In this document: piece after piece, positions 10,951-37,421 of the stretch
Layout: each line of letters begins with the position of its first letter
Numbering within the stretch: the first letter of the stretch is position 1
Origin: Trypanosoma brucei
Lineage: Eukaryota
Assembly (NCBI GenBank): GCA_000002445.1
Contig: CP000071.1
Coordinates: 896,001 to 960,000, forward strand
Length of the DNA stretch: 64,000 nucleotides
Direction: 5' to 3'
Notes under the pieces: model-generated
Seen by the model: the letters and a program-made list of their open reading frames with translations, nothing else
What the model was told of the DNA's origin: nothing
Databases searched by the model: none
Made by a program: the position numbers and the translations under genes

Positions 10951-11277
10951 GTGTTCCTCCTTACTAACTTTTATTTTTGCGTTTGCATCTACAGGCCCCT
11001 CCTCTGCGTAAATTTCCTTTCCTTCCCTCTACCCAATTGTTTTTCTTCCGCCATGCCATTATCTGCAGGAAGTGGACATCGTAACGTTGTCTACTTTCGA
11101 TGTTGTGTTAATTCCCCTTCTGATAAGGTTTCGTCATGCTCGGACATATTTTTCTCACCCCCCCCCCCATTTCCGCCCTTTTGTTGCGAGCTTCTCATAA
11201 CACCCCATTCGGGTTGCTGCGTATTCCCTAATTTCTGTGTCTTCTTCTTCGTACTTTTGAACGTTTTAAGCAAGAGG
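10951..11277 (+). promoter_or_regulatory. long polypyrimidine tract including a C11 homopolymer upstream of the pseudo-helicase gene
   Basis: The + strand is ~80% C/T over >300 nt, with a C-run at 11158-11168. It translates as an F/L/S/C/P-rich pseudo-ORF fused in frame to the downstream gene in the ORF track. Confidence 0.5.
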
Positions 11278-13089: not shown

Positions 13090-15398
13090 ATAGGAACCAT
13101 GGAATTCTCTGCAAGTGAGCGGTTATTGTAATGCTTGCGTGTGATGAGTAAGGGAATAAAAGTTGTGGAACTTCGGTTTCAATATCAGCGGCAAAGGGGC
13201 TACGCCATGGGCACACACATATGCATGTGTGTATGTGCGAGTAGGGCACCCGAATGTGTGTGCTTGGCTGCTACATCGCAGCCACGTGTTTGTGTTTGTG
13301 TGCGTGGCACGCTGCTTACTTTATTTTATTCTATTTTTTTTTTCGCATTTTCCCTACGTTTGTTAAATTTTCTCTTATTTCCACATAAAGTGCTGGATGA
13401 AATGAAGATAAACGACATGGTGGTGTAGGGATGAATCTCACCGAGGAAAAAAAGAAAAAAGGGGGAAAACGAAAAACACCACTAAAAACAAAACAAAAAA
13501 AACAAACAGTTCAACTCATACCTTAAAGAGAGTAAAGAGATGCCAAGAGGGGAACGAAAATCTCACAAACACATACTATCGATAGAAGATAGAAGTAAAC
13601 TCGCAATTGGTAAAACAAAAGGAGGGATGATGGTGATGATAAGGGTGCCGATGGTAAGGAGGTGGAGAGAACAGGAATGTTACGAGCAACTGCTGTTGCA
13701 ACTGGAGACGGGGGAGCGGCAATAAATGGAACGATACAAAAGGGTGAAGGTAAAGGCGACAGTAAAGGAATGTATTTGCGGTGAGTCGGTTCTTTTTCGT
13801 GTTGTATTGCTTCATTCTTTTTGTTTTATTTTTGTTTTAGAGGGTGCATATGTCTTCATCCCGTTTGCTGACTCAAATACCTTTCTAACAAACTTATTGG
13901 CCATTTATTCTTGGGCTTTCTTGTTTCCACACGTGGTTTTTCTTCTTTTCCTCTTTCGGGTCGTTTTCGCATCCATTCCGTCAACCTCCTCGCTATCGTT
14001 GTATTTTTTCCGGCTTCGTTCTTTGTTCCCACTTGTGTTTTTTTCTTTACTTTCTGTGCTTTTATTATGATTACTATTATCATTATCATTATTGTTTTTT
14101 TTTCGTTTTCTCTCCTTCCTACACTCCCCAAAACGAGAGAGAAAGGAAAAAGAAACTTGTACGCCACTTTCACAAATGGATGTTGGCGCACAGTTTTCAT
14201 TCCCCGTGTTCGTGTTTGTATAAAATCTATAGGGCATTATCTGGGACTTGCATGAGCGGTGAAAGCCGTCTTTGCTTGCTTCTCTCCTTTGCTCTCTTGT
14301 TTATTGTTTCTTTTTTCTATTTTGTGTGTGCGTGGCCGCTGCGTATCCAATGATTTTTGCACGCCTCGACTCCTCTCTCTCTTACTTTCTTTCGCTCCAG
14401 CGATAAGAAATAGGGAGAACAGCCACAACTAACTAACTAAATAAAAAAAAATAAAAAGAAACGGTCAGGAGGAAGAGAGGGAATAGTCAGGAAAACTAGA
14501 GAATGAAGTGGGAGAGCACGAATAAAAAAAGTGTAGGATGCTTTTCCTGCTGGCAATGCGGGTGTGAGGCAGCTAGGCTGTAGGTGTATTTGTGTATTTT
14601 GATCTTCGCGTGATTGAATACTCAGCTCTCGCCTCCACTTTTATTTTATTTTCCTCCATGCACCGTTCTCATACTTCACCTGTCATTTTCTTTCTCTTTC
14701 TCTGTGCTTCGTGCTTATAGCGAAGGATTCGGTACGCTTGACCGTGAGAGAGGGGGCCCACCAAGTGTTTTTTGTCTTTTTTTTTTTAAACTTTCAATCT
14801 CTTCCTTCCACTCATTTTCGTACTTTTGTATATCCTTTGCGTCTGTTTCTGCTTCATCCCGGTTCTTGTTTTTTTTTTTGCCCACGCTTCATTCTTCTGC
14901 TGTGGAGGGAGGGGGGAAGGGGTTTGAATGTGCCGTTATGAGTCTTGGGTCTAATGTCGACACAACCGTGAGGGTGCCGTGCTGTGGAATGGAGGTGAAG
15001 GAGAGGGAAGAATTTCAGGGAAAGGTGACAAAAAAGAGATTATGTGAAGTGAAAATAGAAGGGAGTGAAACAAAACACCAAAAGTAAAAAAAAAAGGTAC
15101 AGCGGCTAAGGGAGACGGGATGTGAAAGAGGACAGATGAAAGGAAACGAGCAAGTTTGTTTGGCCCCACGTGGCTCCCAGTTCCCCCTTCAACTACCGTC
15201 GACTCGACGATCGTGTGGGATTGTTTTGTCAGCCCTCCTCTCCGCTTCGCCTGGTCCCCCTTTCTTGCTTTCTTTTCTTTTTGTTTTGTGTGCGTGTTTC
15301 TATTCTTCCGGCCCAATGCGTGTCCCCAACGCGTAGGCAACCTAAAACGTTTTGGTTTGTTTTACAGTTTTCGCTTATTTTTCTCTTTTTCTTTCATT

Positions 15399-15417
15399 TG
15401 TGTGTGTGTGTGTGTGT
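15399..15417. repeat. (TG)9 microsatellite
   Basis: Direct read: tgtgtgtgtgtgtgtgtgt inside the T-rich desert. Confidence 0.9.
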
Positions 15418-17659
15418 TTCGCTTAGAGACTTCACTAGAGCCACCTGTCAATACCTTCACACGGTGCGCCGCTTTTTCTTCCATACTGCGCGCATGGACG
15501 TCTGAGGCTCATGTTCATGTGTGTTTTTCCTCGAGTGTACGACATAGCGGCGCTACTGGCGGCTGCAAGGTCGAGTCATTCCCCTTCTTTCTCGTTTGTT
15601 TCTTCTTTTGGATTTCTTGTCTTGTTTTTTTTTGTTAACGCTGTGCCCTTCTTTCCTCGCGTTCCTCGGAACCAATTGCGGTTTCTTTCGTTCTTATGTA
15701 TGACCCCGCCCCTCTTCCATTTGATGTCGCAACGGTCCACCTCTTTCTTTCTAGTGGCCACGTTTTTGTGTTAAGTTACTTGAAGTAGCGATGGGAGAAG
15801 CCTTTTATTGTTTTTTTTGTTTCAGCAGTCCTCTTGTGCCTGTGTTCGTGTTTTTGCGCTTTTGCTTGTGACTGCGGGGCGGGTGTCTTTTCTTTTTTTC
15901 TTTCTCTGCAATCAATTCACTCGTGTGCAATCACGTCTTTCTCAGTTGATTTTTTTTTGTTTCGAGGGTTTGTTTTTCTCCTTTTCCCACTCCCTGTACG
16001 GATGTGCGCATGGAACATACATAAATATATATATGTATTCGTTTCTATATGTTTATTTATACATATATGCGTACATGCTATTTATTTACTGTTGGCCTTT
16101 GGATCTTTTGATGGGATTAGGCCGGCGGGAAAAGGAACGGAGGGTGAGACGTTGGTTGAAGGGAGTTGCTGACACTGCATTGGGGGAAAACTGCGAGTGG
16201 CGGTGATTGTGTGCGTGTTGTAAGACATGAAGCAATGATGATGTGGAAACAGACAGTGAAAGGCATCTGTACGCATACGCGGCGGGCCTTTTCTCTCCTT
16301 AATTTTCGTTCTGTTTCTTGTTTTTCCCCCCTCTTATCTCTCCCTACTTCTCACACTGCGGCTGTGTCTGTGGCGTGACGTTGTTTGGCACATTTATCTT
16401 GTGGAGGGCACACTTTTTTCTTTTTCCTGTTTCTTTTTTCCCTTTTCCTCTTACAACATTCCCATTAACTACCGAAATGGGACAAATTTGGAGGGAAGGC
16501 TGGAAACTGGAGAAAACACCAAAAACAAAACCAAAACAACAACGGCACCAAACGGATGAGCGGGCGAGTGGAGTTCGAAGGTAGACAAGAAATACATATG
16601 CGAGAGGATGTATTTTACCGTTCCTCTCCTTTCAATAGTTTTCCTTCCCCCCTTTCCCCAGACACGAAATATCCCCTTTTCAAGTTTTAACCTGTGTACA
16701 TGCTTTGCGTCTTCCCATCTTCTTTGCTCTTTGTTATTATTGTTATTGATTTACTTATTTGTTTAACGTGAACTTTTTAACTGTTCCCATTTCGTAGCAG
16801 CATGTGGGTTGAACCTCGACCCGAGTGCCTCAACTTTGGCTGCCGCCGGACTGAAAGTGCTGCTGTGGGAAAGTCAGAAGAGGGAAGTGCAAGAACGACG
16901 CGGCAATAATGGAGTGCAACCGCATGCACAAGTTTGTCGGGCTGGTGTTGTCACGCAGCGTTTATTTGCGCCTGTACATGCATGAATACGTGCGTGTTTA
17001 TGAGGGGTTACGAGGAAACAAAGTGCGGGCATGAACTCCAGGGGAGGAGGAAATAAATAACTGGAAAAAAAAAGGAAAGAATAGTGTGGCCGATGCGTAT
17101 GGCTCTGGTGGAAGATGAGGTTCATGTGCGGCAACTCACCGGGCTCTACTCTACATTTCTCTTTTCTTTTTTTTTTTGTCATGCAAATGTTTTTCTCTCC
17201 GATGTTCGTTCCTTTTGCCTCTCTTCCTCCCTTTTGTTTAACGGTGTGACGTGCTTCATAAGCCTTCTCCGTAGTGCAGTAACTGAAGCAGTTCATCGTT
17301 GCTGGGGGGGGGCATGTGCTTGCGTTTTGAAGGTGTGTGTGTGTGGGACTCGCGTGGGTGCGAACTAAACCAAGCCAAGAAGGAAAGAAAAGAAAAAAAA
17401 TGCAGAACAGAAAAAGAAAAATAAAGAGGAGGGAAAAAGATTAATAACTAGACGGTGTGGGGACTACACTGATAAGATGACCAAATTGGTTTGTTATGTT
17501 TTCCAAGTACGGTGGAAGAGTTTCGATTGCGCATTCCCTCCCTTTTTTTTACCTTTCCTACGACCACTGCGTGCTTCCTTCTTTTCATCCAAACGCCCAG
17601 TTGGGGGCCAAGGAAGAGGAAGAAACATTGGCTCGGATTTCTCCATTAAGGATGTCTGC

Positions 17660-17660
<1 letters not shown>

Positions 17661-17686
<26 letters not shown>
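17661..17686. repeat. (AT)13 microsatellite
   Basis: Direct read: atatatatatatatatatatatatat. Confidence 0.95.
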
Positions 17687-17691
<5 letters not shown>

Positions 17692-19833
17692 TATTTGCTT
17701 GTTTTTTTGTACCCTCCTCCAATTTTTGTTTTCCTCACCATGCGCATGTTTTCTTCTTTCCCTTCTCTCTTTTCTTGGCTATATGCCCGCTGACTGTTTT
17801 GGAGGCGGTAAGGACATCAAACGAAGAAAAATTCAGTGCAGGTGACAAAACAAAAGCAAGTACGACTCAGCAATACGTAAGTGTATATGTATTTTCTCGC
17901 ATATGTGTATTAACATATTGCTCCACCCCCATTCAGCTTATGCACCTTTTCCCTGTATTTCTGTATAGTTTGTGCTGCATTGCCGTTAAGTTCACCCTTA
18001 CGATGCCAGCGGTGATGATCTTTTTTTTCTTCTCACCATTGCTTTCCTCCTCCTCCTCCCCTTTTTTGTCTCTTGTATTTGCAGTGGCATCGTTTCTAAC
18101 GGCCATGCGGATCACAATTTTGTACCGACCGCACGGACATGCACTCACGCTGCCACCACTACTGCTGCAGATGTCACCCGCAGACACTCCGGTGTCTCCT
18201 TAGCATTTCGGGCCCTTCAATACTTTTACTCGCTTACTTCATCGTAACCATCACGGGGAGGGGAGACGGCGTATATGAAGGCAGGAGCAATAATATGAAG
18301 CAACATCAACTTTTGTCCCAACTGGAATGCTAACACTCGAAACGGAGCTGACACTTCTCACCTGCAAGGAGGGTAAAATAACAAAAAGTTATCCTTCTAT
18401 CCTACCGTTTCTACCTTTTACAAGCACTTGCGGAGCCACTTGGGACACTTAGGTGCTTTCTGCTCAGTAGGGCCGCGTTCAAAACCAAAAAAAAAAATGA
18501 ATCCTTTATGTGACCTAAATCCCGACGGCTGGTTTGCGGTCACAAATAAACCTACAGTATGAGCGGCTCCAAAGCGGGTTGACACTCGATGTTTCTCCAG
18601 CCAAATGCCACAAACGCATCATTTGCTGCACATATGCAGAGTTGGGGGTTGTGGTGGAGGTTTTGTACCTTGACGATCGCTCTGCATGCTGCATTCGGGA
18701 CACCACCACTCGAAGATGCACCGCTTTGGGGGAAATATGGGGGATACAATTCGGTGTGCTGATATAACTCTGCGCACCACCGATGATCTGTTCCGTCGTA
18801 TGTAAATGCGTTAATCATAAACGTACATAGCGACTGAATTGAGCCCGAAACCGGAAGCGATGTGTATTGTAAATTGCACTGTGTTTGGCAATGTGTTGTG
18901 CGTTGGGGGACCAAAGTCATGTGATGAGGCGCTGCGAGCATAATATTCGCGTGGTTACATACCAATACGTTGGTAGCGAATGGTTTTGCCCTTTACTAAC
19001 CGGGTGGCACCCGCACAACTCTGCAAGGACTTGATCCCGCTTAAGTTTGCGTGCACTGATGAAAAACAACCTGCTTATATTCGAGCGTGGTCCGGGCACC
19101 ACTAACCGTGTTTTGATTCCGTTATATTACCTCCATCCCCTTTTCGTGGTTGATGCACTACCCGCGAGCCGTTCTTTTTATTTGGTCTCAAATGTCTACT
19201 CACGTGTTTTGTTGTTGTGCCTGCGCTACATTTATCAGCCGATGATGCGGGAGACGTAGGAAGTCTGTGAGTTGTAGCAAAAGGTCTTTCTGTTGGCGGT
19301 ACGGTGTTTGCTTTGGCTTTACTCCGTTTCAGTGCTTATGAGCGTTCGTTCAGTTGTGGTTCCACGCTTCGTGTTGTACTGAATGGGAATACTGCGTTTC
19401 GCCTGTCACACTCTGTGCACGTGGTTTGTTCGTGAGTGTACTTTCTTTCCAGGTGTTTGAGTGTCTGTGTGCCGCTACAATTTATCCTTTTGTGTGTTGC
19501 CTTACTGCCCTTTGCTCCGCGGTGAAGCATTTCCTGTAGATTGTGGACGTTCTCAAACTTTTTTCCTTATTCGCCTTCCCTTTTCTCCCAGTGGTAGGCA
19601 GCGTGAAGCTGTGGATACTGCACCGGTATATTTCTCGTTTCCGTATGTTTCGCATATCCTCATGTTTTCACAGTTTCTTTCTCAATGCTGTCCGCTGCAC
19701 CTTCATCGCTGACGTGCTGTACGGCTGCCGTTACAGCCCACACATTGGAATGTGCCACCATCCGTACGTGTACGTGAAAACAGTGTTGTTTTGCGTCTCC
19801 AGTCGTCCGGAGCAGCGGCTTGAACGTGAGTAT

Positions 19834-20253
19834 ATGCGTGGTCTTATCGAACACCTTGTCGCGTGCGATGCGAAGCACGATACGCAGACAAAACTAGAAC
19901 TGATGCGGTTTGTTGACGTCGTGCCGGCCGCCGCAAGCCTCGGTGGTAGCGGCCACAGTGAGGTGCTGAGCGCCGGAAAAATGGGTGGTGAAAGCGGAAT
20001 GTCCTCTTTCTTCACGGGTACTCTCTTCCCCGCAGTGTTGGGTCATGTGTTACTATACGACGCGGTTTGCGTATGTATGTCAGGTGGTTTGTACGACGAT
20101 GCGGCGCGCGACTGCGTGGCGCAGGTGGCGGCAAGGCTAGGTGTCTCTCAGCACGGCCGGGAAATGATTGAAAAAGCGGCAATACGTGAGCATCAGTTGG
20201 CTGCGATGAAGCGGCAGCTGCTTCTCCTACCTGAGACCCCGCCACTGCGTTGA
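19834..20253 (+). CDS. small hypothetical protein (~140 aa); the start is uncertain
   Basis: The 3' part of ORF 19543..20253 has coding-like composition ('MRGLIEHLVACDAKHDTQTKLELMRFVDVVPAAASLGG...'). The 5' 97 codons are F/L/S/C-rich, i.e. a translated pyrimidine tract. Alternative ATGs lie at 19750 and 19543. Confidence 0.3.
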   Translation: MRGLIEHLVACDAKHDTQTKLELMRFVDVVPAAASLGGSGHSEVLSAGKMGGESGMSSFFTGTLFPAVLGHVLLYDAVCVCMSGGLYDDAARDCVAQVAARLGVSQHGREMIEKAAIREHQLAAMKRQLLLLPETPPLR

Positions 20254-21126
20254 GAGACGCTTTGGGAGGTAACTGCAAGAGCGGCACCCGTCTAATTTTG
20301 GAGTGGAAAGGCTTGCAAGAGCTGTGTAGTTGTCTTACATTGTCTTTGGCGTGTGCATGGGCAAGGTTGCGGTATTGGTGTGCTTCCCAAATCCTGCTGC
20401 TCCATGCGTTTTATTCCTTGTTGTCACTGCTATGTTTTGCGTGTCCCATCGTGTTAGTAAATTAAACCTCAATAGCCACCACGACTCGATCATCAGAACA
20501 TTGGAGTGTTGACGCATTGGCTTAGAACCTGTGACCCGCCTCTTCGCAAATGTGGCGCCGGTGCATAGCGATGTTTTTGCCACTGTGTTGATTGTAATGC
20601 CTAAGTTGACGTGCACAACTTGATCCCTTAGCGTTGAGGAGGGATGCGCGAAGGCGAAGGGATTGAATGTCTTCTCTTGATGTGTTTTTTTTCTTATTGT
20701 CGACTTTCTTGTCGGCGTTGCCGTGCCCCCCAATTGGCGTGAGTCGAGGAGCTTGCACACATAGCTTGCGCGCACAGCATCACTAGACTTCTGTGGGGTT
20801 CATGTGTGGTGTGTCTCGACATTGGCATTGCGATCGCTATCAAAAGCTGCAATAGCGGATAGTGTATAGACGGCAGTTACAGCCGTGATCGCACAGCGGT
20901 AAGAGGCATAATGTTTATAGTGCACGACACAAAACAATGAATCCAATGGCGACCTGTGCCTTCCCCCAAATAACCTGGAAAAATATCTCTGTCTATTTAC
21001 TGTGAAGTTGGACGTAGCTCTGCTTTCTTCCTTCTCCTTTTTGCCTTTGCCCACTACAGTCATTCTAACAAGGTTAGCAGCCTTTTTGTTGTCGTTGTTG
21101 TAAACCCGCAGGAAACAAGTACATAT

Positions 21127-23953: not shown

Positions 23954-25969
23954 ATGCTCAAGAGAGTTATTGCGAGGGCAAGCCTCCCCAAGTCGTTGGA
24001 TGTACTGCCGCTTTTTTCTTTTTCGAAGAAGGGCAAGGGTGGTATCGAGAAGGTTGCTGGTGACAGCCAAGTAAAATCCCTTGTGTCCCACCCAAAATGC
24101 GTGTCGGCACATTTTTGCAATCCTAAGGACCACTCTGAAGCTTTACGTGAAGACGACGATGGAGGTGATGTGGATAAACACGACGCAGTGGATGTGCCTT
24201 TTGGTTTCCGTGATGCACCGGGGAATATTTTGTTGGATCCGGAGCGGCGGCGCCTCTTTGCCGGCATTGGTGAGAAACCAACGGTGCGGGACTATCGCCT
24301 AGCCGTGACGGCTGCTGTACGCGAAGCGTCTAAGTTAAAAGCATCAGCACTGGTTATGCGTTCTCTGCCAAATGTGCTGTATTCGGTTGGAGACTTGTTT
24401 CAGCCTGCGAGCGCTCTCCCGGCGGAGGACGTAGCTGAAAAAACGGTTACTTATGCCGTCGCGGCGGCGTATCGGTACGACCGATTTCTATCGAAGGCTA
24501 AAGGTGGCTTGCCCCCTCCGAGCCGTGGTAGGCGAAATAAGGCGGTTGCAGAAGGGAGTCATGAGCAGTTGAATTTAATTATTGACTGCGGGGACAAGAC
24601 TTCTATTGCCAGTGGAAATATCATTGGACATTGCATAAATGACGCACGAAACCTGGGTAATCTTCGTGAGGATGAGGGCACTCCGCAGTTTTACTGTGAG
24701 TGGATTCATCAGGAACTGGCCCCACTTGGCATTAAGGTGCAGAACGTGTTGCACGGAGAGCAGCTTGAGAAGGCGGGGTTGAACCTCATATACAACGTTG
24801 GAAAGGGGTCAAAACACACGCCTTATTTGGTTGTGTTTGAGTACGTCGGTGACAAGAGGAGCAATAAGGCAACTGCCCTCGTGGGCAAGGGTGTTACATT
24901 TGATTGCGGTGGTCTTAACATTAAACCATTCGGGTCGATGGAGACGATGCACATGGATATGATGGGTGCAGCCACGGTTATGGCTACGATGAAGGCTATC
25001 GCCGAACTTCAACTACCAGTTAACGTTGTGGCCGCCGTTGGGCTCGCGGAAAACGCGATCGGTCCAAGCAGCTACCACCCATCATGCATTTTGACTAGCC
25101 GCAAAGGACTAAGTGTTGAGGTGTTGAACACGGATGCCGAGGGGAGGCTTGTACTTGCTGACACACTGACTTACCTTCAGAAGGACGCTAAACTAGTGAA
25201 GAAGGCCGATACGATCATCGACATTGCGACCCTCACAGGCGCAATTGTTGTCGGCCTTGGGAGCCGGCGTGCAGGTCTCTTTGGCAACGACATCGCGCTG
25301 GTGCAGCAGCTTATGGCTAGCGGGCGAAGCAGTGGGGAGGAGGTTTGGCCGATGCCCATCGGGGATGAACACCAGAGGGCGATCAAAGGGAATATTGCCG
25401 ACCTTGTTAACGTACCGAGCGTGCGTGAGGGCGGTTCCTGCACTGCAGCGGCGTTCCTAAGCAACTTTGTGGAGAAAGATGTGAAATGGGCGCATCTTGA
25501 TATTGCAGGTTCGGGGATGGGGACCGACAAGCCAAGGGGATTCCAACCAGCGGGGGCACCCGGATTTGGTGTTGAGCTTCTGGTGGACTACTTTCGCCAG
25601 CACGTCATGGCTTCTTCAAAGGGAGTGTCGACGGGTAAGGATGGAAGCCACGGTGATGCGGAAGAGTCTACTCAAGAAGAGGGTGCTAATGCTGAAGTGA
25701 GTGAGGAAAATACCAAAAGATCTAAGACCAGCGCAGGTGGAAAGAAGTTAACGAAAAATGCCGAACCGAAGGAAGGAAAGGGCAAAGAAGCAAAACCCAA
25801 CGTGAAGGGTACGAAAGGTGGCAGAAAGGTTGGAGAAAAAGGCACGGAAGGCAAAGGAAAAGCGGCCAGCCCGGCTGAAAAGAAGAGGGTGAAAAAGGCA
25901 CCTGCGGCCAAGCAGGGTCGCCGGGCAGTGAAGGGGAACCCGAAAGGAAAGAAAAGGTCTGGCAATTGA
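23954..25969 (+). CDS. M17-family leucyl aminopeptidase with a C-terminal Lys/Gly/Ala-rich basic tail
   Basis: 'NTDAEGRLVLADTLTY' is the M17 signature NTDAEGRL. 'VGKGVTFDCGGLNIKP' matches the M17 GKG.TFDSGG.S.K motif. The metal/bicarbonate-site context 'MKAIAELQLPVNVVAAVGLAENAI' is present. The last ~110 aa run 'KKLTKNAEPKEGKGKEAKPNVKGTKGGRKVGEKGTEGKGKAASPAEKKRVKKAPAAKQGRRAVKGNPKGKKRSGN'. Confidence 0.85.
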   Translation: MLKRVIARASLPKSLDVLPLFSFSKKGKGGIEKVAGDSQVKSLVSHPKCVSAHFCNPKDHSEALREDDDGGDVDKHDAVDVPFGFRDAPGNILLDPERRRLFAGIGEKPTVRDYRLAVTAAVREASKLKASALVMRSLPNVLYSVGDLFQPASALPAEDVAEKTVTYAVAAAYRYDRFLSKAKGGLPPPSRGRRNKAVAEGSHEQLNLIIDCGDKTSIASGNIIGHCINDARNLGNLREDEGTPQFYCEWIHQELAPLGIKVQNVLHGEQLEKAGLNLIYNVGKGSKHTPYLVVFEYVGDKRSNKATALVGKGVTFDCGGLNIKPFGSMETMHMDMMGAATVMATMKAIAELQLPVNVVAAVGLAENAIGPSSYHPSCILTSRKGLSVEVLNTDAEGRLVLADTLTYLQKDAKLVKKADTIIDIATLTGAIVVGLGSRRAGLFGNDIALVQQLMASGRSSGEEVWPMPIGDEHQRAIKGNIADLVNVPSVREGGSCTAAAFLSNFVEKDVKWAHLDIAGSGMGTDKPRGFQPAGAPGFGVELLVDYFRQHVMASSKGVSTGKDGSHGDAEESTQEEGANAEVSEENTKRSKTSAGGKKLTKNAEPKEGKGKEAKPNVKGTKGGRKVGEKGTEGKGKAASPAEKKRVKKAPAAKQGRRAVKGNPKGKKRSGN

Positions 25970-27206
25970 GGGGTAATGCATTGGAACCACCGTGCCGCTC
26001 GTTTCTGTATTGTGAGGAAGGGGTGTTTTTCGACACGTAAGTTCCCACAACTGGGGGTTTCGGAGATAACATGCGGTGGTGGGGCGAGAGTAAAGACGCT
26101 TACCTGATTGTTTTGGTTGGGCTTATACCCTCCTGAGCTTGTGTTGATGTCTCTGGTCCACTTTGCCTGGCCATTAACAGTCACTGGGGTTTCAAGTAAC
26201 GACAAACAATTACAAGTAGTGTTTTTTCAAAAGAAGCCAGGTGCCTTCCTTTTTGTTTTTTTGTTTTGCCAGTCCGTACAACTGTTTTTCTAGCCGTTTT
26301 ATTTTTACTACCTTCAGCTCGAATTGTTCCCTCTTTTATTTTTTTCTTCTCTCCGGGCGCTGGTCGAGTGGTATCCCTTCCCCGACCATACGTTTTCTCC
26401 CACCTTTTTGTGATAACAAACCCCCTTTCCTGTTGTTGTGATCCACCGGGTACCTTCTTCCTATTGATACACATGGGCCGTAGTGCGGTGTTTCTTTATG
26501 ATTGTCTGGGAATACGGGTTGGTTACGTTCAAATTTCATCACATCTGGCAGCCGATGGATAAGTGGCGGTATCACCCATGCCAGCGCGGGAGACAAATAT
26601 GAATGGCCCTTTCAGTGCGTGAGAAACTGAACAGGGGAGGGGGCACCATGCCTTTTCTTTTTTTTTTTTTCATGGTGTCACAGCTGACCATCATACATAG
26701 ACGTGCGGCGCTGGTCATGGACATCATTATTTGGTCGTGCCTAATGGGCCCCGCGTGCAATTTATTAAATTTGTATTTTGGTTTGTTTGTCGCATTTAAG
26801 TAACTTAATTTCCATATTTATGAGTGAACTGCCTAGTTTCACAAATAGAACGCTGAATAAGCGTGTGCAAAGCGATATCGGGGGTGAGGGTGTGTGTATG
26901 TGGGGAGGGGAGTAAAATGAGTAAAACATGTGAATGGTGGTTTTTTTTTTTGCCACAGTTCGCTACTAATGGTTTTGGTTGAACTCATGATCTCTAGTAG
27001 GTGGTGAATGACTCGGAATTTGACTACACTACTAACGACCTGCCTCTGTATACACTTACTGGTCACAACTGAATCTAAAATTGCTTTGTTCCCCTTCCCA
27101 TTCCCGACGGGTGCACCTACTCTTAATCTTTCTTTCCACACGAGGTATTTTCCCAACTCTCCAGACTCTGGTGGTAAGTAGGAGCGGAAAGTGACAAATA
27201 GTATTT

Positions 27207-28085: not shown

Positions 28086-31000
28086 GTGTTGGAAATGCTG
28101 AGAAACTTGCAAGCCCCGCCTGATTTAGAACCCCCAGCACCTCAGCTGCTTGCCGTGCGGGGTTGCTCGCTCATCACGTCGCGATGGCTCCAGGTGCTTT
28201 CGTACATTCTGGCGGAGGTTTGCAGCTCTGCGACACTACTAGATGATTATGTGCGCGCCACGCTGAATGTGTCGCATCACTTGCTCTCCGCGTGGCACAG
28301 CATAGCGGTGGCGGCTCATCGCCCGCGTGAACAACGTACGAGCGGGAGCTCTTCCGGTTGGCGCTCTGTTTCTAGGGATGGTACCGTACCACAGACGGAC
28401 CGTGTGCGCTGGGAGAAGGAGGCTACAGCTGCTAGGCATGTCGAGCTAGTTCGTCACCTGGTTGTCATGGCGCTGCTGCAGCAGTTCTTGTCTGTGCCCG
28501 TTTCTGGGAGCTCTGACACTGTGCTGCGTGACTTGCTCTTACGACACCGTCGATGGCGTCAGCGGAGGGCTGGTAAGGGCCGATTCACCGAGCTCGGCGA
28601 CGCGGAGGGTGGTTTGGTAGGGGATGATGATAATAACTGCGATGGCGGGGGCCCTCGTGCGCCGCGTGGACGGGACCGGGAGGAAAGCAAAAACAATAAG
28701 CGGCCACGGCCTCACTCTGTGGATCGCTTTGGGTGTTCTTCTTCATGGTCCACCTTGCCATCGATGGGCCAGCGACCGGACGATGATTGTTCCATTTGTG
28801 ACGAGGAGCGTTGTGACGACAACACGTGCTCTTCGGTGGACTTGCGGTTGTTTATGCGTGCGGCTGTCGCCATGAACCCCACCGCCTGCGCCCTGCAGCT
28901 CATTTCGCGTTGCATCGTGTGTATCCAGAGTGATTGGAGTTGTGACTGCAAGGACGGTGCGCCTCCCACGTCGCCGGTGGGTTTCCGTGGGCCTGATGCT
29001 GGGGACGGTGGCGTTGCGGGTAACCGCTACTTTGTTTTCGTGGCAAGTCGTGACGTTGCTGCATGTGAGCACTCAGGGCCATGCTTTGGAAACCGCAAGT
29101 TTATTTTTGTACATTGCGAGCGGCCTAGCTGTGAGGATGTTGAGCCTTCGCGTTGCTCTCGTCATTGTCCGGTAGTTATACCACCCCCGGAAACCGCAGC
29201 TGGCACCGTGGCTCCTATTGCTCTTGTGGCTTCGCGGAGGGGTGGGGGGCCGTTGCTTGGAGACGGCGGTGTGTGGGGTCATGTGATGCGGTCGATGAGG
29301 CAACTGCGACTTGAGCTGGGTCGAGGCGGCTTGGGCGTCCCCGCTCGTAGTGGTGTAGTGGCTTGCTTGCCCTCTGTTGCTCGCCCCGCTTGCAATGCTC
29401 AGGGCAGGCCGTCCTTTTCGAGAGAGGGGGCTGGGAGGTTCTTACTTCCGCCCCTCGCACCGAACCGTAGGTGCTCCACTGAGCACTGCATGGGATGCGG
29501 CCCCCTGCCGACCGATGCGCGCTCCCAGCGGGGGATTGACAGCGGGGAGGATGGCAGCGTGGGTGAAAGTGACGAGGGACGATCATCGTGGTTCCTTATG
29601 TATTCTGACCGGTGCAGCGCCACTGGGGCTTTCTTCTCCGGTGCAGTGCCCTCCGTGGGGCGGCTCATCGCGTTCCCTTCCCCTCTTACAGGCTCATCGA
29701 GCGAGCCGGTGCCGGTGGTGCAGCCCACATCCAATTTGGAGAGTGTGGACGTGCCCCTAGAGCAAGCCATTTTTCTGCCACCTGCTGCTGGACACGAAGT
29801 GCGCCATACAGGAAGGCCGTCTACGGAGGTGGACGAGTACAGTAAGTCAGTCATGGCTGGTCATGTTGCTTTCGCGGAGGAGGTGGCTGCGCGCCTGGAG
29901 TTCTGGTGTGCCCGTGGAAGCCCCCGTCGTTGCTACTATGACCCCGTGGTGCTAAACTCTGCAGGGGATAATGGTGATGGGGCTTCTGGGGGCACCGATG
30001 TTGGTGCGCGTCGTGGCAGCAATGACACGAATGGGTGCGTGTCTGAGGGAGAGAATGCGGGTGACTGGATGGAGGAAACTATGCCACTGATGTTGCTGTT
30101 CACTCAGGTCGGTACGGTCCGTTTCCAGTTGCTAGGAGACACAGTGTATTGCAACCCGAGGAGCCGGGGACTCCTTATTACCGCGATTAGTGAGGCAACG
30201 GAGTTGGTGATTTGTGGGACGCGTGAGAGCCGCGTTCATCGTGGTTGGCACAAGCGCTGTGACAATGGTCGTAGTGATGGACGCGCTGGTAACGGAGTTG
30301 GTCGCCGGAGGACGAGGGGAGAGAGCGTAAGTGGTGTTTGTGGTGCGAGCGACCTGACGCTTTCAGCTGGGGTTTCAGGTGGCGCCTCTCTTCATGTGTA
30401 CTACGACGTCGCAGTGGAGGTGTGCGTATGTTGGGCGCAAGGTGAAGTGCTTGGAGATGGCGAGAAAGACTGCCAGACAGCGCTGGAGGGGACGAGCGTG
30501 GGGAATGCTAAAGGTTCTCCATATGGCTCACGCTGCGGTCAGCTCCTTTCGAGACGCGAGCAAAACCAACGGAGGAGTGAACGGCTGAAGACGGAGTTCC
30601 GCCTCGCGCATTCTGATCGTTTGGATGCCCTCCTCGTTGACGGTCGAAACGCAAAGCCCATAGCCTCCGTCACGCTTGTCCCATCGACAGCTCCCGGTTG
30701 GCCCACGCAGTCTGCTACTCGGGCCGTGCAGGACACTCGGTTTATCGTTCAGTCTTTCAGCCACTACGTGGCGCCACTCCTGAATCACCTAAGGGAGGAC
30801 AAGGTACTGATGGTTGACATGGATCGCACGTTGGTGGACAACGCCATCATTTCAAGAAACCGGCTTGCCCATGGCTTCCTTGACAACCCGCTGTGGAGGG
30901 CGCAGTTTCATATGGGGTCTTCCCAAGAGGAGGGGCAGGCCGATGAGCGGGAGGCTCTGGAGAGGCATTGCGAGGCGTCGGGCATGGTAAGTTACTTTGT

Positions 31001-32009
31001 ATCTGAGGATCCACGCTGCGGGATGCGGACGGAGACTGTTTACGTTCGACGTGGCGTGAGGAACCTGCTACGGCGGTTCGCTGTGGAGTGGGGCATTCCG
31101 CTGTTGCTGGTAACCAAATCGTCGCGCAGCCGCGCTGAGGCCATACTGCGGCAGCTGCTCGACCCCGAGGGGGAGCTTTTCCCGATTGATCGCGGACGTG
31201 TTTACACAGCGGAGTTCCTAGTGAACTCAGTGCCCCACTCCGGCTTTTCCTCGCAAAGTATGGGTTCCTGCCCCACCAGTATTGATGGCGTGACAGATGT
31301 TGGTGCCATGGACGCAGAAAGTTGGCGTGAATACCGGCGGCGTTTGTGTGACTCGCGGAAGTCCACTACTGATGTACTGCGGGTGTGGGACCAGCTGTTT
31401 TCCTCCACTGAGGGAGTAGCACCGGTGCGTCGCGCACGAAGTGTTGCCGTGCTGGATGACATGCCTCAACTGTGGAGCGAGTCAGACTGGCCACGCACCG
31501 TAGCTGTTGCTCCGTACACGCTGGACCGTGTGGATCCAGATGAGTACTTTTCAGCCGGAGGCCTCATCGCGTCTCTGCTACTTTCAGTGCTCTATAGCAA
31601 GAATTCTGTGGTGTGCCCGTTACGTATGCGTCGCTTCGTTGCCGGGGGAAGTGGTTCCTATGGGTGCGGGACGGTATATGGTGAGGAGGCCACGTGCGAT
31701 TTCCGTGGCGGTGTTCAAGGGTATGGCCCTGGTGGAGAGCGCGACACCGTTTATGGCGAGGTGGAAGTACAACATGAGGACAGCACCTGTCATACGTGCA
31801 TGTCGGATGACACCGATTCCTTGGATTACTGTGGAAGGTCGTCCCCCCCACCGACTCCCTGTTTCGTTACCCTGGAGGGTGGTGGGGGTGTTTCTGTAGC
31901 TGGAGAGGAAGGGGTGGGCGATATAGTGGTTGTTGAGGAGGGAGGTTTAGATCTCCCGGAGGTGAGTGTATGGAACACTGCGGACGTGGAGGATGTAGCG
32001 CCTCTATGA
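28086..32009 (+). CDS. large (1307 aa) protein with a C-terminal FCP1/NIF-like HAD phosphatase domain; the N-terminal two-thirds are low-complexity, Cys/Arg/Gly/Ser-rich
   Basis: 'KVLMVDMDRTLVDN' (~30790) carries the HAD DxDx(T/V) motif in FCP1/NIF context (LVLDLDETLV). Downstream 'LLLVTKSSRSRAEAILRQLLDPEGELF' and 'VAVLDDMPQLW' (~31441-31480) match NIF motifs II/III. Cys clusters 'CSICDEERCDDNTC' and 'RCIVCIQSDWSCDC' lie near 28780-28960. GC-rich codon usage produces many spurious antisense ORFs over this region. Confidence 0.6.
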   Translation: MLEMLRNLQAPPDLEPPAPQLLAVRGCSLITSRWLQVLSYILAEVCSSATLLDDYVRATLNVSHHLLSAWHSIAVAAHRPREQRTSGSSSGWRSVSRDGTVPQTDRVRWEKEATAARHVELVRHLVVMALLQQFLSVPVSGSSDTVLRDLLLRHRRWRQRRAGKGRFTELGDAEGGLVGDDDNNCDGGGPRAPRGRDREESKNNKRPRPHSVDRFGCSSSWSTLPSMGQRPDDDCSICDEERCDDNTCSSVDLRLFMRAAVAMNPTACALQLISRCIVCIQSDWSCDCKDGAPPTSPVGFRGPDAGDGGVAGNRYFVFVASRDVAACEHSGPCFGNRKFIFVHCERPSCEDVEPSRCSRHCPVVIPPPETAAGTVAPIALVASRRGGGPLLGDGGVWGHVMRSMRQLRLELGRGGLGVPARSGVVACLPSVARPACNAQGRPSFSREGAGRFLLPPLAPNRRCSTEHCMGCGPLPTDARSQRGIDSGEDGSVGESDEGRSSWFLMYSDRCSATGAFFSGAVPSVGRLIAFPSPLTGSSSEPVPVVQPTSNLESVDVPLEQAIFLPPAAGHEVRHTGRPSTEVDEYSKSVMAGHVAFAEEVAARLEFWCARGSPRRCYYDPVVLNSAGDNGDGASGGTDVGARRGSNDTNGCVSEGENAGDWMEETMPLMLLFTQVGTVRFQLLGDTVYCNPRSRGLLITAISEATELVICGTRESRVHRGWHKRCDNGRSDGRAGNGVGRRRTRGESVSGVCGASDLTLSAGVSGGASLHVYYDVAVEVCVCWAQGEVLGDGEKDCQTALEGTSVGNAKGSPYGSRCGQLLSRREQNQRRSERLKTEFRLAHSDRLDALLVDGRNAKPIASVTLVPSTAPGWPTQSATRAVQDTRFIVQSFSHYVAPLLNHLREDKVLMVDMDRTLVDNAIISRNRLAHGFLDNPLWRAQFHMGSSQEEGQADEREALERHCEASGMVSYFVSEDPRCGMRTETVYVRRGVRNLLRRFAVEWGIPLLLVTKSSRSRAEAILRQLLDPEGELFPIDRGRVYTAEFLVNSVPHSGFSSQSMGSCPTSIDGVTDVGAMDAESWREYRRRLCDSRKSTTDVLRVWDQLFSSTEGVAPVRRARSVAVLDDMPQLWSESDWPRTVAVAPYTLDRVDPDEYFSAGGLIASLLLSVLYSKNSVVCPLRMRRFVAGGSGSYGCGTVYGEEATCDFRGGVQGYGPGGERDTVYGEVEVQHEDSTCHTCMSDDTDSLDYCGRSSPPPTPCFVTLEGGGGVSVAGEEGVGDIVVVEEGGLDLPEVSVWNTADVEDVAPL

Positions 32010-32806: not shown

Positions 32807-33086
32807 GTGTAGTGTAGCACATGCTTTGAATTGACGCGAGCGGACTTTGATACGTTTGTTTGGTGGGCTTCATCTGTGCTCTGGATGGGCGTGTAGGATG
32901 TTGAATCGCGCTTGCTTTTACCTTCCACTTTGTGTGCATGCAGTTGGTGTGCCCCATGCAATTTAGTTTTCCATCTAATTCTCTCTTGTCAACGTTCGTT
33001 TCTTTTTCTTGTTCATGGTGAGGATCAAGTCACGCGCACACGTAAGTAATTCTACACAAGCATCTTCCCCACTGAGGAGCACCCCA

Positions 33087-34586
33087 ATGGACGTATCGCG
33101 GTTTCGACACACACAGGCTGTACCGGCACGGCAGGACCAACAGTTCCTAAACCTGACTCCTTCTGCAGCGCGGTGGGAGTGCAGCAACCTTATCGCCTGT
33201 AACGACCGCTTCATTGCGATACCGTGGTTGCAACTTGGTAGCACGGCTGTTCTGCGCCACACTGATTGCGGGAAGTTGGCCTCGAACCCGCCCATACTTT
33301 TGGGCCAGGAGGGGGACATCATTGATGTCGCCTTCAATCCATTTGACTCGTCGAAGCTATTCACAGCGAGCGAGGACGGGACCATTATGGGGTGGAACAT
33401 CCCCGAAGAGGGTCTGACGCAGAACTGCTCTGACAACATTGTTCACCTGCAAGGCCACTCCAAGAAGGTGGGTCTACTGAGCTTCCACCCCAGCGCCGCC
33501 AACGTGCTGGCTTCCGCGGGTGCTGATATGGTAGTAAACGTGTGGGATGTCCAGAAAGGTGTCGCAAAAGAAGTGGTGAAGTGCCACGCGGAGCAGATCA
33601 GCTCGCTGGATTGGAATCTTGATGGTTCGCTTCTTTGCACCACATCTAAGGATAAAAAACTAAACATTGTGGATCCGAGAAGCCAAAAAATTGTCTGCTC
33701 CAGCGGCGCTAGTGAGAGCACCAAAACTCAGCGTGCTCTTTGGGCACGACGTGCCGACCTTGTCATTACAATTGGAGTAAATACAATGCAAATGCGTCAG
33801 GCAATGGTATGGGACATCCGCAAGTTGGCGGCACCAGCGAGCACTGTGGATGTTGACCAGTCATGTGCTGTTTCTATGCCCTTTTTTGACGAAGACACAA
33901 GCCTATTTTATATTGGAAGCCGCGGTGAGGGCGGCATTCGCTCTTTCGAATTGAGAAACAGTCGGCTCATTAACTGTTCTTCGTACTCCTCATCGGAGAT
34001 TCATCGGGGGCTTTGCATGGTTCCCAAGTGGATGTTGGACACACACAAATGCGAGATCGCCCGCTTTTATGCCCTTACACAGAAGTCAATGTACAACGTT
34101 CAGATGCTGTTACCACGCAAAACTGCAGATGAGGAGCTTCAAACTGACGTGTATCCTCCCACCTTTGCAAATGAACCCGCTATTACCGCTGATGAGTACT
34201 TTAGTGGTGTGAACAAGGAACCTCTTGTCATGAGCATGCAGGCTGTTTTTGATGGTAAAAGTCTTGAGGCGACAAAAGCTGCTGAGACTAAGCGCCGGGG
34301 AGTACCTCGCCCTTCAGAGGTGGAGTCGGATGATGACGACTCCTCCGCAGACGAGGCGGTGACATCATCCCGGCAGAAACACGCGGACCCCAACGCTGTG
34401 CGGGGTCCCGCCCATTCCGAAGGTATCAGCAGCCAGACATCATCGCAGTTGTTAGCTCTTGCCTCGCTATTGGGGCAGCAACAGGCGGAGGTGCAGCGTT
34501 GTCGTGAGGACCTTCAGAAGAAGGAGAGCCTTGTCATGGAGACAATCGCAAAGATAAAGGCCCTTGCCTCTGGTAGTCAAGCGTAA
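33087..34586 (+). CDS. coronin (WD40 actin-binding protein)
   Basis: N-terminal 'MDVSRFRHTQAVPARQDQQFLNL' matches the coronin signature (SKFRHVFG.P.K.DQCY.D.). WD repeats 'GHSKKVGLLSFHPSAANVLASAGADMVVNVWDV' and 'CHAEQISSLDWNLDGSLLCTTSKDKKLNIVDPR' follow. The C-terminus is coiled-coil 'QQQAEVQRCREDLQKKESLVMETIAKIKAL'. The start is placed at ATG 33087, not the ORF-track 33009. Confidence 0.85.
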   Translation: MDVSRFRHTQAVPARQDQQFLNLTPSAARWECSNLIACNDRFIAIPWLQLGSTAVLRHTDCGKLASNPPILLGQEGDIIDVAFNPFDSSKLFTASEDGTIMGWNIPEEGLTQNCSDNIVHLQGHSKKVGLLSFHPSAANVLASAGADMVVNVWDVQKGVAKEVVKCHAEQISSLDWNLDGSLLCTTSKDKKLNIVDPRSQKIVCSSGASESTKTQRALWARRADLVITIGVNTMQMRQAMVWDIRKLAAPASTVDVDQSCAVSMPFFDEDTSLFYIGSRGEGGIRSFELRNSRLINCSSYSSSEIHRGLCMVPKWMLDTHKCEIARFYALTQKSMYNVQMLLPRKTADEELQTDVYPPTFANEPAITADEYFSGVNKEPLVMSMQAVFDGKSLEATKAAETKRRGVPRPSEVESDDDDSSADEAVTSSRQKHADPNAVRGPAHSEGISSQTSSQLLALASLLGQQQAEVQRCREDLQKKESLVMETIAKIKALASGSQA

Positions 34587-36089: not shown

Positions 36090-37421
36090 ATGCAGAAGCT
36101 CTTATCGCCAAGAACAGCGCGCCACGCCCGTCTCTTCCGACTCGCTGGCAAGTTGGCTGACTCGGGTAGTCCCGGTGTTCCTAAGAGTGACGGCGAGCGC
36201 CTCGTGTGGGTTAACTCACACGTGCGGCGTGATAAGGATATTTCCCTATCCCAAGAGGAGGAGAGGATTCGGGAGCTAATGATGCCGCTGGAGGTCGGAG
36301 AGAATTCCTTCGCGGCTAACGGGCAGGCAACACATGGTAACTTGTTTTATTTCCGCGAGTACCCAATGTACCCCGGAGAGTACGTACCGGCGGAGCATAA
36401 CACTCTTTCGTCGTTGCGCGACGAGCTGCGACTTGATCTAACTGCACAGTCGTTGAAAGAGGCCTGGATGCGGGTGAGTGGTGGGGTGTATTTTCAATCT
36501 GTGGATGAATACTACGCTTCTGTTGATGGTCTCGATGCGGAACAGATCGGCGAGGTATTGGCGGCCCTTTTTCCAGAGCTAAACTGTTACGAAGCTCAGG
36601 CACTTGTGCAGCGGACATTAGAGTGCATTAGTAGGCCAGTCAGCGCCGCTTCACGGCAGCTTAGTCGCACCATCACGGCCGAAGCGGTGGGACTTGACAA
36701 CGCACCGGGTCACTACACGAATTTCTTGGAGTGGATGGGTCGGTTAACGGAGACACGAGCGTTTAAAACAGAACATGCACTGTTTGAGTTTAGTCGTCGG
36801 AAGTTCAACAGAGATGATGTGCGTGTTATGTTCGAGAACTACCGACTGATGAGCAAAGCCACTCTCCTTGCTGATAGCGCGGATAGCTACAGCCACTTCT
36901 ACACGGTCCTTAAAGACTTTGCCCGTAAGGTAGCAGGTGAAGATTCCCGACACCAGATAGGCGTACGTATTGATGAAGCGGAGGTGGACCCGGAAACTGG
37001 AATTGCTGTTGGTCGTGGTTGTGCGGATGGGGAGAAATACCACTTCACCGCCCTCCTTCGTGAGAACAGAGACCACAACGGCATCATCACTGTGATGGGC
37101 AAACCACTTTCACTGGTTCTTGACAATAAAGCGTGGTTAATGGAGATGGTTTTGATGCCGTTTGATGAGGCAAATCTGGATTACAGGGATTTCGATGTGC
37201 ATATCGTTTCCGAAGGGCATGCAATGCCCTCCATCGCCAACGAAATTGCTGCCTTCGCCTTACGCATGGCGGTTGCGAACGCTCTCGTGAAGTTGATTCC
37301 ACTGACGCGTATTCCACTGAAGAAGTCGGGACTGCTGTCAGTGGACCGCCGGCGCGAAAGGGGACAGTTCCCGGGATATCTTGATGGAAAGAAGGTGAAG
37401 CGTCGCTTTGCCAAGCGGTAG
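36090..37421 (+). CDS. mitochondrial ribosomal protein uS9-like protein with a long N-terminal extension
   Basis: The C-terminal ~110 aa match the uS9 fold signature. 'HIVSEGHAMPSIANEIAAFALRMAVANAL' aligns to GGG.SGQA.AIRHGI.RAL, and the very C-terminal 'LLSVDRRRERGQFPGYLDGKKVKRRFAKR' aligns to uS9 '..LTRD.R.VERKK.G.KKARR..QFSKR'. A ~300 aa N-terminal extension is typical of kinetoplastid mitoribosomal proteins. Confidence 0.6.
   Translation: MQKLLSPRTARHARLFRLAGKLADSGSPGVPKSDGERLVWVNSHVRRDKDISLSQEEERIRELMMPLEVGENSFAANGQATHGNLFYFREYPMYPGEYVPAEHNTLSSLRDELRLDLTAQSLKEAWMRVSGGVYFQSVDEYYASVDGLDAEQIGEVLAALFPELNCYEAQALVQRTLECISRPVSAASRQLSRTITAEAVGLDNAPGHYTNFLEWMGRLTETRAFKTEHALFEFSRRKFNRDDVRVMFENYRLMSKATLLADSADSYSHFYTVLKDFARKVAGEDSRHQIGVRIDEAEVDPETGIAVGRGCADGEKYHFTALLRENRDHNGIITVMGKPLSLVLDNKAWLMEMVLMPFDEANLDYRDFDVHIVSEGHAMPSIANEIAAFALRMAVANALVKLIPLTRIPLKKSGLLSVDRRRERGQFPGYLDGKKVKRRFAKR

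Follow-up and report, generated by a model that had tools for sequence, protein, structure and literature searches.

The basic charge of the kinetoplast DNA-associated aminopeptidase TbLAP1 of Trypanosoma brucei lies in a bipartite C-terminal tail that is predicted to be disordered

A stretch of 64,000 nt of the Trypanosoma brucei genome (contig CP000071.1, positions 896,001 to 960,000 of the forward strand; in the following "the window", numbered from 1) was analyzed with a focus on one gene, which encodes a leucyl aminopeptidase of family M17 with a long C-terminal tail. The complete coding sequence extends from nt 23954 to nt 25969 on the plus strand and comprises 2,016 nt, i.e., 671 codons followed by a TGA stop codon (25967-25969). 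The deduced protein showed no difference over 671 positions to XP_847137.1/AAZ13071.1 from T. b. brucei TREU927, and it is 99% identical to a T. b. gambiense protein annotated as "cytosolic leucyl aminopeptidase". The same 671-aa protein, including the tail, is annotated in four Trypanozoon assemblies. In addition, four published primers match the window exactly. Two of them had been designed for in situ tagging with green fluorescent protein (GFP). The homology arm of the forward primer is identical to 90 nt at 25877-25966 on the plus strand and joins the tag directly after codon N671, and the arm of the reverse primer matches 81 nt at 25979-26059 on the minus strand, in the 3' untranslated region. 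The other two map without mismatches to 25566-25585 (plus strand) and 25946-25965 (minus strand), and they enclose the 400-bp trigger that was used for RNA interference (RNAi; 25566-25965, plus strand), which coincides almost exactly with the tail-coding region (PMC5397073). Given the complete protein identity and the perfect matches of the tagging and RNAi primers, the gene is TbLAP1 (Tb927.8.3060), also called LAP-B, the known M17 aminopeptidase of the kinetoplast DNA (kDNA) and the nabelschnur described by Pena-Diaz et al. in 2017 (PMC5397073). The initial annotation of the sequence had mentioned that one M17 aminopeptidase of trypanosomes was reported at the kDNA, and it is this very gene.

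The N-terminal region of TbLAP1, approximately aa 1-30 (23954-24043, plus strand; MLKRVIARASLPKSL...), resembles a presequence and has a net charge of +6. Its motif ML[KR]xVxxRxPxPxS is conserved in all trypanosomatid orthologues, and four predictors have called the N-terminus a mitochondrial targeting signal (PMC5397073). The M17 catalytic domain comprises aa 231-544 (24644-25585, plus strand) and was detected with the Pfam family Peptidase_M17 (PF00883) at E = 4e-106, with 355 bits versus a cutoff of 25 and a coverage of the profile positions 3-310 of 310. Solved M17 structures match the protein with E values down to 9e-69. The motifs GKGVTFDCGG and NTDAEGRL begin at aa 311 and aa 392, respectively. 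The residues K312, D317, K324, D335, D394, E396 and R398 are all found in the protein and do not vary in an alignment of 40 sequences. Based on the active site of the bovine-lens enzyme, we take these seven residues to be the metal-binding and catalytic set. A structure was predicted with AlphaFold2 on a 40-sequence alignment, which resulted in a mean predicted local distance difference test value (pLDDT) of 77.5. The M17 body was modelled confidently, with pLDDT values mostly above 90 in the catalytic domain and values below 50 in an inter-domain loop (aa 182-203). The last structured element is a C-terminal helix (aa 540-556; 25571-25621, plus strand), which marks the end of the M17 fold in the model and agrees with the ends of solved M17 chains. 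Nearly all of the latter stop within about ten residues of the position that aligns to approximately aa 544-550; an exception is PepA (1gyt), for which the alignment stops at aa 530 of the query and about 22 residues lie beyond the aligned region.

Behind the sequence ELLVDYFRQHV (aa 541-551, 25574-25606) the reading frame continues for another 120 codons (aa 552-671, 25607-25966), which are called the tail in the following. The initial annotation had pointed out the M17 motifs and the in-frame extension rich in Lys, Gly and Ala behind them; both are present, and the 75-residue string quoted there was found verbatim. The tail as such is thus real, but its boundaries had to be revised, because the proposed start at 25620 lies 13 nt inside the tail and the proposed length of about 110 aa is slightly short of 120. 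The composition revealed two parts, an acidic, Ser/Thr-rich spacer (aa 552-587; 25607-25714, plus strand) with a net charge of -7 and an isoelectric point (pI) of 4.1, and a polycationic Lys/Gly/Ala-rich segment (aa 588-671; 25715-25966, plus strand), in the following also called the arm, with a net charge of +24 and a pI of 11.1. The arm contains 24 K, 6 R and 6 E, i.e., 36% K+R (29% K), together with 18% G, 12% A, 6% P and 6% hydrophobic residues. Its net charge per residue is +0.29 and its fraction of charged residues is 0.43. The tail as a whole has 26 K, 6 R, 2 D and 13 E, which results in a net charge of +17 and a pI of 10.2.

The net charge of the entire protein is +18, of which the tail contributes +17, and the core (aa 1-551) has a net charge of only +1 and a pI of 7.6. 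When the first 30 residues were left out as an approximation of the presequence, the body had a net charge of -5 and a pI of 6.3, and body and tail together had a net charge of +12 and a pI of 9.0. The 2017 paper reported a pI of 9.8 and an "extra 100 amino acids" without a known domain, and its authors related the basic charge to the binding of nucleic acids and to an association that is sensitive to DNase (PMC5397073). Since the core is neutral to acidic and the tail carries the positive charge, the basic pI that was tied to nucleic-acid binding is a property of the tail. The richness in basic residues exceeds chance expectation: at the K+R frequency of the core (11.6%), the binomial probability of finding 30 K/R in 84 residues is 8e-9. 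Likewise, +24 was the highest value per 84-aa window among the 20 plus-strand open reading frames (ORFs) of at least 200 aa in the window, and the runner-up had +14.

The AlphaFold2 model assigned pLDDT values of 31-43 and no secondary structure to the residues 564-671, and the tail is therefore predicted to be intrinsically disordered. The basic segment holds the sequence KKRVKK and many KG/GK dipeptides. In the tail as a whole, two K[KR]x[KR] patches (KRSK and KRVK) and 15 KG/GK dipeptides were counted; an RGG motif was not found. With its high net charge, low hydrophobicity and predicted disorder, the tail has the sequence features of the polycationic, intrinsically disordered nucleic-acid-binding tails, which are grouped by function and not by homology. 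No Pfam family besides M17 was detected, either with the whole protein as query (E up to 0.1) or with the tail alone (E up to 10). A sequence search of the PDB with the tail (E up to 10) resulted in chance-level matches alone (a PsaE tail and a hexon protein, E = 0.1-0.5), and Tandem Repeats Finder reported for the tail one trivial 11-nt repeat with 2.4 copies and no meaningful repeat structure. A known domain and a recent internal duplication as explanations for the tail were thus ruled out by the Pfam, PDB and repeat scans.

For a low-complexity extension it had to be considered that it could be an artefact of annotation or assembly, i.e., that the true stop codon lies upstream or that a frameshift or read-through is involved. 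The region is indeed purine-rich and of low complexity, and it has long spurious antisense ORFs, e.g., 25672-26205 on the minus strand. However, GFP that had been fused in frame behind codon 671 was expressed, and the fusion protein was found at the kDNA and the nabelschnur (PMC5397073). Because the published GFP primer ends on codon 671 and the fusion localized to the kDNA, the tail is translated in vivo, and an upstream stop or an out-of-frame tail, which the initial annotation had named as a possible objection, is excluded. Moreover, RNAi with the 400 bp of tail-coding DNA produced the published knock-down phenotype, the four Trypanozoon records with an identical 671-aa product are independent and concordant, and the predicted mass of 71.3 kDa (core 59 kDa, tail 12.3 kDa) agrees with the published mass of "~70 kDa" (PMC5397073). 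The artefact explanation was rejected on the basis of the in-frame tagging, the RNAi primer matches and the concordant records, and its probability is regarded as close to nil. The three antisense ORFs of 100-177 aa over the tail-coding DNA (25672-26205, 25722-26072 and 25748-26050, all on the minus strand) arise from the sequence, which is rich in purines, poor in stop codons and of low complexity, and are not genes.

Two observations on further published primers were made. The primers printed for in situ tagging with V5 (PMC5397073) had no match in the 64-kb window when up to three mismatches were allowed, and they were not used as evidence for translation. They encode ...IENYLEDKLDEIDIWV, which differs from the C-terminus of TbLAP1, and probably they belong to another gene or are a misprint. 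The published reverse primer for overexpression contains TCAATTGCCAGACCT, the reverse complement of the last four codons and the native TGA (25955-25969), and thus the insert for the ectopic "TbLAP1-HA", as printed, retains the native stop codon.

The distribution of the tail was analyzed among the best 120 database matches by counting the residues past the conserved end of the fold (...GFGVxLLxD[YF][FL]R). All ten Trypanosoma sequences had 46-132 extra residues. They are from T. brucei, T. congolense, T. melophagium, T. cruzi, T. rangeli (two sequences) and two Logan assemblies, together with RNF17368 and ORC89166, the latter presumed, without confirmation, to belong to the T. theileri group. 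The other kinetoplastid orthologues, which include Leishmania, Porcisia, Leptomonas, Novymonas, Phytomonas, Bodo, Neobodo and Trypanoplasma, end 0-5 residues past the fold, apart from exceptions of 12 and 19 residues, and no tail was found in M17 enzymes of euglenids, oomycetes or bacteria. As far as these sequences show, the tail is restricted to the genus Trypanosoma, and the earlier expectation that it is lineage-specific was confirmed by its absence from Leishmaniinae, Phytomonas, bodonids, euglenids, oomycetes and bacteria, and from all M17 enzymes of solved structure.

Local phmmer and BLASTP searches with the T. brucei tail recovered the protein of the T. brucei group alone (the T. b. 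gambiense protein at E = 5e-64), and the Trypanosoma tails could not be aligned among themselves. A large-database search with the tail alone gave nothing and missed even the T. b. gambiense protein, probably because low-complexity words are not indexed, and this result therefore says nothing on the absence of relatives. The charge distribution had more in common than the sequence. In the recurring layout, the proximal part is acidic (net -6 to -14) and the distal part behind it is basic (net +14 to +28). The acidic segment is present in the orthologues of T. congolense, T. cruzi, T. rangeli, RNF17368 and the two Logan assemblies, and the two tails of the T. theileri group lack the acidic part and have a distal net charge of +12. 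The distal tail of T. cruzi has a net charge of +14, although it is unalignable with that of T. brucei. The richness in Lys and Gly is specific to T. brucei, and the other tails are rich in Lys/Arg with little Gly. Because the distal part has a net charge of +12 to +28 in nine of the ten Trypanosoma sequences though the tails are unalignable, these comparisons speak for a selection on the charge of the tail and not on its sequence. The charge has been kept through a complete turnover of the sequence.

The charge was also compared across the kinetoplastid LAP-B clade. The tail-less trypanosomatid orthologues have pI values of 8.8-9.7. Their positive charge is found in the N-terminal region (mostly +5 to +14) and also in an inter-domain insert of 25-41 aa (mostly +2 to +6, with one Phytomonas sequence at -2). 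Both regions are near neutral in Trypanosoma. The columns of the insert that align to aa 186-212 of TbLAP1 (24509-24589) hold 30-41 aa with mostly +2 to +6 in Leishmaniinae and related species, 13 residues in the T. cruzi clade and 27 residues with a net charge of +1 in T. brucei. Past residue 30 the mean net charge is +10 in Trypanosoma, all of it from the tail, +7 in the other trypanosomatids and +12 in the bodonid-like sequences. Positive charge is thus a property of the whole kinetoplastid LAP-B clade, and the tail is the way in which the genus Trypanosoma carries it.

Several published observations bear on the question which role this charge could play. TbLAP1 has been localized to the kDNA disc, the antipodal sites and the nabelschnur, it forms asymmetric foci and does not cover the whole disc, and TbLAP1-GFP failed to enter a gel until the sample was treated with DNase or sonicated (PMC5397073). 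In the nabelschnur it co-localizes with maxicircle DNA. Ethanolic phosphotungstic acid (E-PTA), which stains basic proteins, marks the nabelschnur and the antipodal sites, and the nabelschnur also holds filaments that are not nucleic acid, with which the basic protein TbNAB70 was reported to interact. Pull-downs with TbLAP1 recovered no interacting proteins, and only two of the nine DNA-binding residues of PepA are present in TbLAP1 (PMC5397073). A DNase-sensitive association with DNA is established for the whole protein. We infer that it is the tail that contacts the DNA and that it acts in a multivalent manner, and the poverty of TbLAP1 in a folded DNA-binding surface like that of PepA counts for this reading.

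M17 enzymes assemble as hexamers; for TbLAP1, no assay of its aminopeptidase activity was found. As GFP nanobodies pulled down the fusion protein together with untagged TbLAP1 (PMC5397073), the results suggest that TbLAP1 is an oligomer with an exposed C-terminus. Each hexameric particle would then display six flexible cationic arms, which could bind the phosphate backbone of the kDNA electrostatically and without sequence specificity. Such binding would raise the avidity of the particle for, and its dwell time on, the dense kDNA network and the maxicircle-containing nabelschnur, and the arm would act like the C-terminal domain of histone H1 or a kinetoplast-associated protein (KAP), without homology to either. 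The acidic spacer would keep the arm off the catalytic body and might also dampen its binding. That the tail is a disordered polycationic tether or affinity module for kDNA is the reading with the best support and is regarded as a proposition with about even chances of being right. Because other trypanosomatids carry the charge elsewhere, the tail is more likely a module that enhances or tunes affinity than a single switch that creates the association with kDNA.

Several points weigh against the proposed tethering role of the tail. The tail sequence is unconserved, with a K/G richness that only T. brucei shows, and neutral drift of a low-complexity extension is conceivable. The motif search of the tail found no AT-hook (no RGRP or GRP), no [ST]P[KR][KR] and no [ST]P.[KR]. 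In the orthologue of T. congolense IL3000 (P0002), only 11 residues (...MPGAKGKAVV) come after an acidic spacer of 38 aa, so that the net charge of its tail is -3; it is the sole one of the ten Trypanosoma sequences without a basic arm, and either the arm was genuinely lost or the gene model is truncated. The authors of the 2017 study stated that direct binding to kDNA cannot be asserted (PMC5397073), and the searchable literature yielded no experiment in which the tail had been truncated, transferred or assayed for binding in vitro; the later papers in which TbLAP1 is mentioned added nothing on the tail. Finally, overexpression of the tail-less L. major orthologue LmjF.23.0950 led to 1N0K1F kinetoplast-less cells and swollen kinetoplasts (PMC11184559). 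Because a tail-less enzyme causes kinetoplast loss, a kDNA-related effect does not require the tail. The suggestion of the initial annotation that the tail could be what turns a metabolic enzyme into a kDNA-associated factor is weakened by this L. major effect, by the presequence and the basic character, which are shared with tail-less orthologues and are older than the tail, and by the short, non-basic tail of T. congolense. In this stronger form the role of the tail is not supported.

The same observations support the alternative that the tail is dispensable for the association with kDNA. In this case the presequence, together with either the body of the M17 hexamer or protein contacts with other components of the nabelschnur or the tripartite attachment complex (TAC), would be responsible for targeting. 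The tail itself would be a low-complexity extension that drifts and is tolerated, or would at most modulate solubility, turnover or activity. The kinetoplast loss caused by the tail-less L. major enzyme, the presequence-like N-terminus and basic body common to tail-less orthologues, the missing arm in T. congolense and the tails that cannot be aligned between species are all consistent with it, and PepA of E. coli shows that an M17 body is able to bind DNA. However, the body of the T. brucei enzyme without its tail is neutral to acidic (+1, or -5 without the 30 N-terminal residues), only two of the nine PepA residues are kept, and the pull-downs gave no interacting protein. In addition, nine of ten Trypanosoma sequences have a distal charge of +12 to +28 despite the complete sequence turnover, a pattern that is hard to obtain via drift alone. 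Dispensability of the tail is thus viewed as a serious but rather unlikely alternative.

Another alternative is that the tail is functional with a partner other than duplex kDNA. That partner could be mitochondrial RNA, acidic proteins or those filaments of the nabelschnur that are not DNA, or the tail could self-associate into a condensate via an interplay of spacer and arm. This would fit the acidic-then-basic layout that is conserved in most Trypanosoma orthologues, the presence of the non-nucleic-acid filaments and the reported interaction of TbNAB70 with them, and the asymmetric foci of TbLAP1. In contrast, it is difficult to reconcile with the release of TbLAP1 by DNase or sonication, its co-localization with maxicircle DNA and the lack of partner proteins in the pull-downs, and this explanation is considered improbable.

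The tethering role of the tail can also be extended to a wider scheme, which is put forward as a speculation that we regard as unlikely, if a little less so than a non-DNA partner. Selection in kinetoplastid LAP-B would act on the net positive charge of the particle and not on a sequence, and Trypanosoma would have moved this charge out of the N-terminal region and the inter-domain insert to a C-terminal unit of acidic spacer and polycationic arm. A hexamer with six arms of +24 would be a multivalent DNA cross-linker that holds the maxicircles in the nabelschnur, its dosage would time the separation of the networks, and the spacer would be a built-in and possibly regulated inhibitor of the arm. 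If true, this would explain both the delay upon knock-down and the rapid loss of kDNA upon overexpression.

The gene, its localization to kDNA, the basic pI and the approximately 100 extra residues have already been published, and the proposed mechanism of the tail is a reasonable hypothesis; current knowledge is not overturned. What is new is modest, namely, that the charge lies entirely in the tail, that the tail is bipartite, predicted to be disordered and genus-specific, and that the charge is located elsewhere in other kinetoplastids. No protein had been assigned before TbLAP1 to the nabelschnur, the last physical link between the daughter kDNA networks, and the location of all positive charge on a disordered tail of 120 residues leads to a concrete hypothesis that is inexpensive to test. 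Because the published RNAi trigger coincides almost exactly with the tail-coding DNA, a tail-less allele would largely escape the published RNAi (approximately 41 bp of the trigger, 25566-25606, would be left), and thus a complementation design is ready for use. Furthermore, the tailed Trypanosoma enzymes and the tail-less Leishmania enzymes, which are basic elsewhere, represent a natural experiment on recruitment to the kinetoplast.

All 17 ORFs of at least 250 aa in the window (1-64000) are on the plus strand, as expected for a single trypanosomatid polycistronic unit. Pfam matches were obtained for a coronin-like WD40 protein (33015-34583), a protein with a ribosomal S9 domain (36090-37418), which is possibly mitochondrial, and a pentatricopeptide repeat (PPR) protein (46936-49323). 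The ORFs 7463-9673, 11053-13086 and 28095-32006 had no Pfam match. The last of these (plus strand, 1,304 aa) has an acidic C-terminus with a net charge of -18 over the last 84 residues, the opposite of the TbLAP1 tail. Amid this gene-dense unit, a region of about 8 kb (13100-21100) has no ORF of at least 250 aa and only two ORFs with an ATG start of 202-235 aa.

Among the closest known systems for a comparison are the Leishmania LAP-B enzymes (LmjF.23.0950 and L. donovani Q95V75). They are M17 orthologues with 51-54% identity, share the N-terminal ML[KR]RV..R.P.P.S and, like TbLAP1, are basic overall (pI 9.1-9.5). In contrast to the tailed TbLAP1, they end six residues past ...LLVDFLR, and their charge is situated in the N-terminal region (+6 to +14) and in the inter-domain insert of 30-41 aa (mostly +3 to +6). 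For the L. amazonensis enzyme, diffuse cytosolic staining was found in an older antibody study, as cited in PMC5557676.

A further M17 hexamer for comparison is PepA of E. coli, which moonlights as a DNA binder in Xer/cer recombination and in the repression of carAB, independent of its peptidase activity. TbLAP1 would resemble PepA in this respect; however, PepA binds DNA via residues of the folded hexamer, the nine of which two are kept in TbLAP1 (PMC5397073), and it has no C-terminal extension (1gyt, 503 aa).

The initial annotation had compared the tail with histone H1 and kinetoplast-associated proteins, and this comparison holds for charge and disorder but not for descent. Like KAP1-4, which are H1-like, and the C-terminal domains of histone H1, the tail is highly basic, lysine-rich and presumably disordered, and these proteins neutralize and compact DNA electrostatically. 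Histone H1 has a winged-helix globular domain and a C-terminal domain that is rich in Lys, Ala and Pro and contains S/TPKK motifs. The Pfam scans of protein and tail revealed no winged-helix Linker_histone domain, and the basic segment of TbLAP1, with 29% K, 18% G, 12% A and 6% P, is K/G- and not K/A/P-rich and has no motif of the S/TPKK type. The KAPs are small free-standing Lys/Ala-rich basic proteins with a cleavable presequence of 9 aa, or proteins with a high mobility group (HMG) box of the KAP4/KAP6 type (PMC8080567), whereas TbLAP1 is an enzyme of 71.3 kDa. Pfam detected no HMG box in TbLAP1, and its basic tail of 12.3 kDa is fused to an enzyme. Homology of the tail to H1 or KAP proteins was thus rejected, and a mechanistic analogy alone remains.

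A precedent for a basic appendage is the T. brucei DNA polymerase beta-PAK, also an enzyme of the kDNA disc with a lineage-specific, lysine-rich low-complexity extension. It is found throughout the disc, and it is believed to add to the kinetoplast's staining by E-PTA (PMC10719067, PMC8375306). The extension of beta-PAK is N-terminal, about 300 aa long and rich in Pro/Ala, whereas the TbLAP1 tail is C-terminal, comprises 120 aa with 18% Gly and 6% Pro, and begins with an acidic spacer; the likeness is one of kind and does not imply homology. Compared with the 2017 description of TbLAP1 itself (PMC5397073), the text of which gives neither position, composition nor disorder of the extra residues and does not tie the basic pI to them, the present analysis adds the division into a core of +1 and a tail of +17, the bipartite layout of the tail and its restriction to Trypanosoma.

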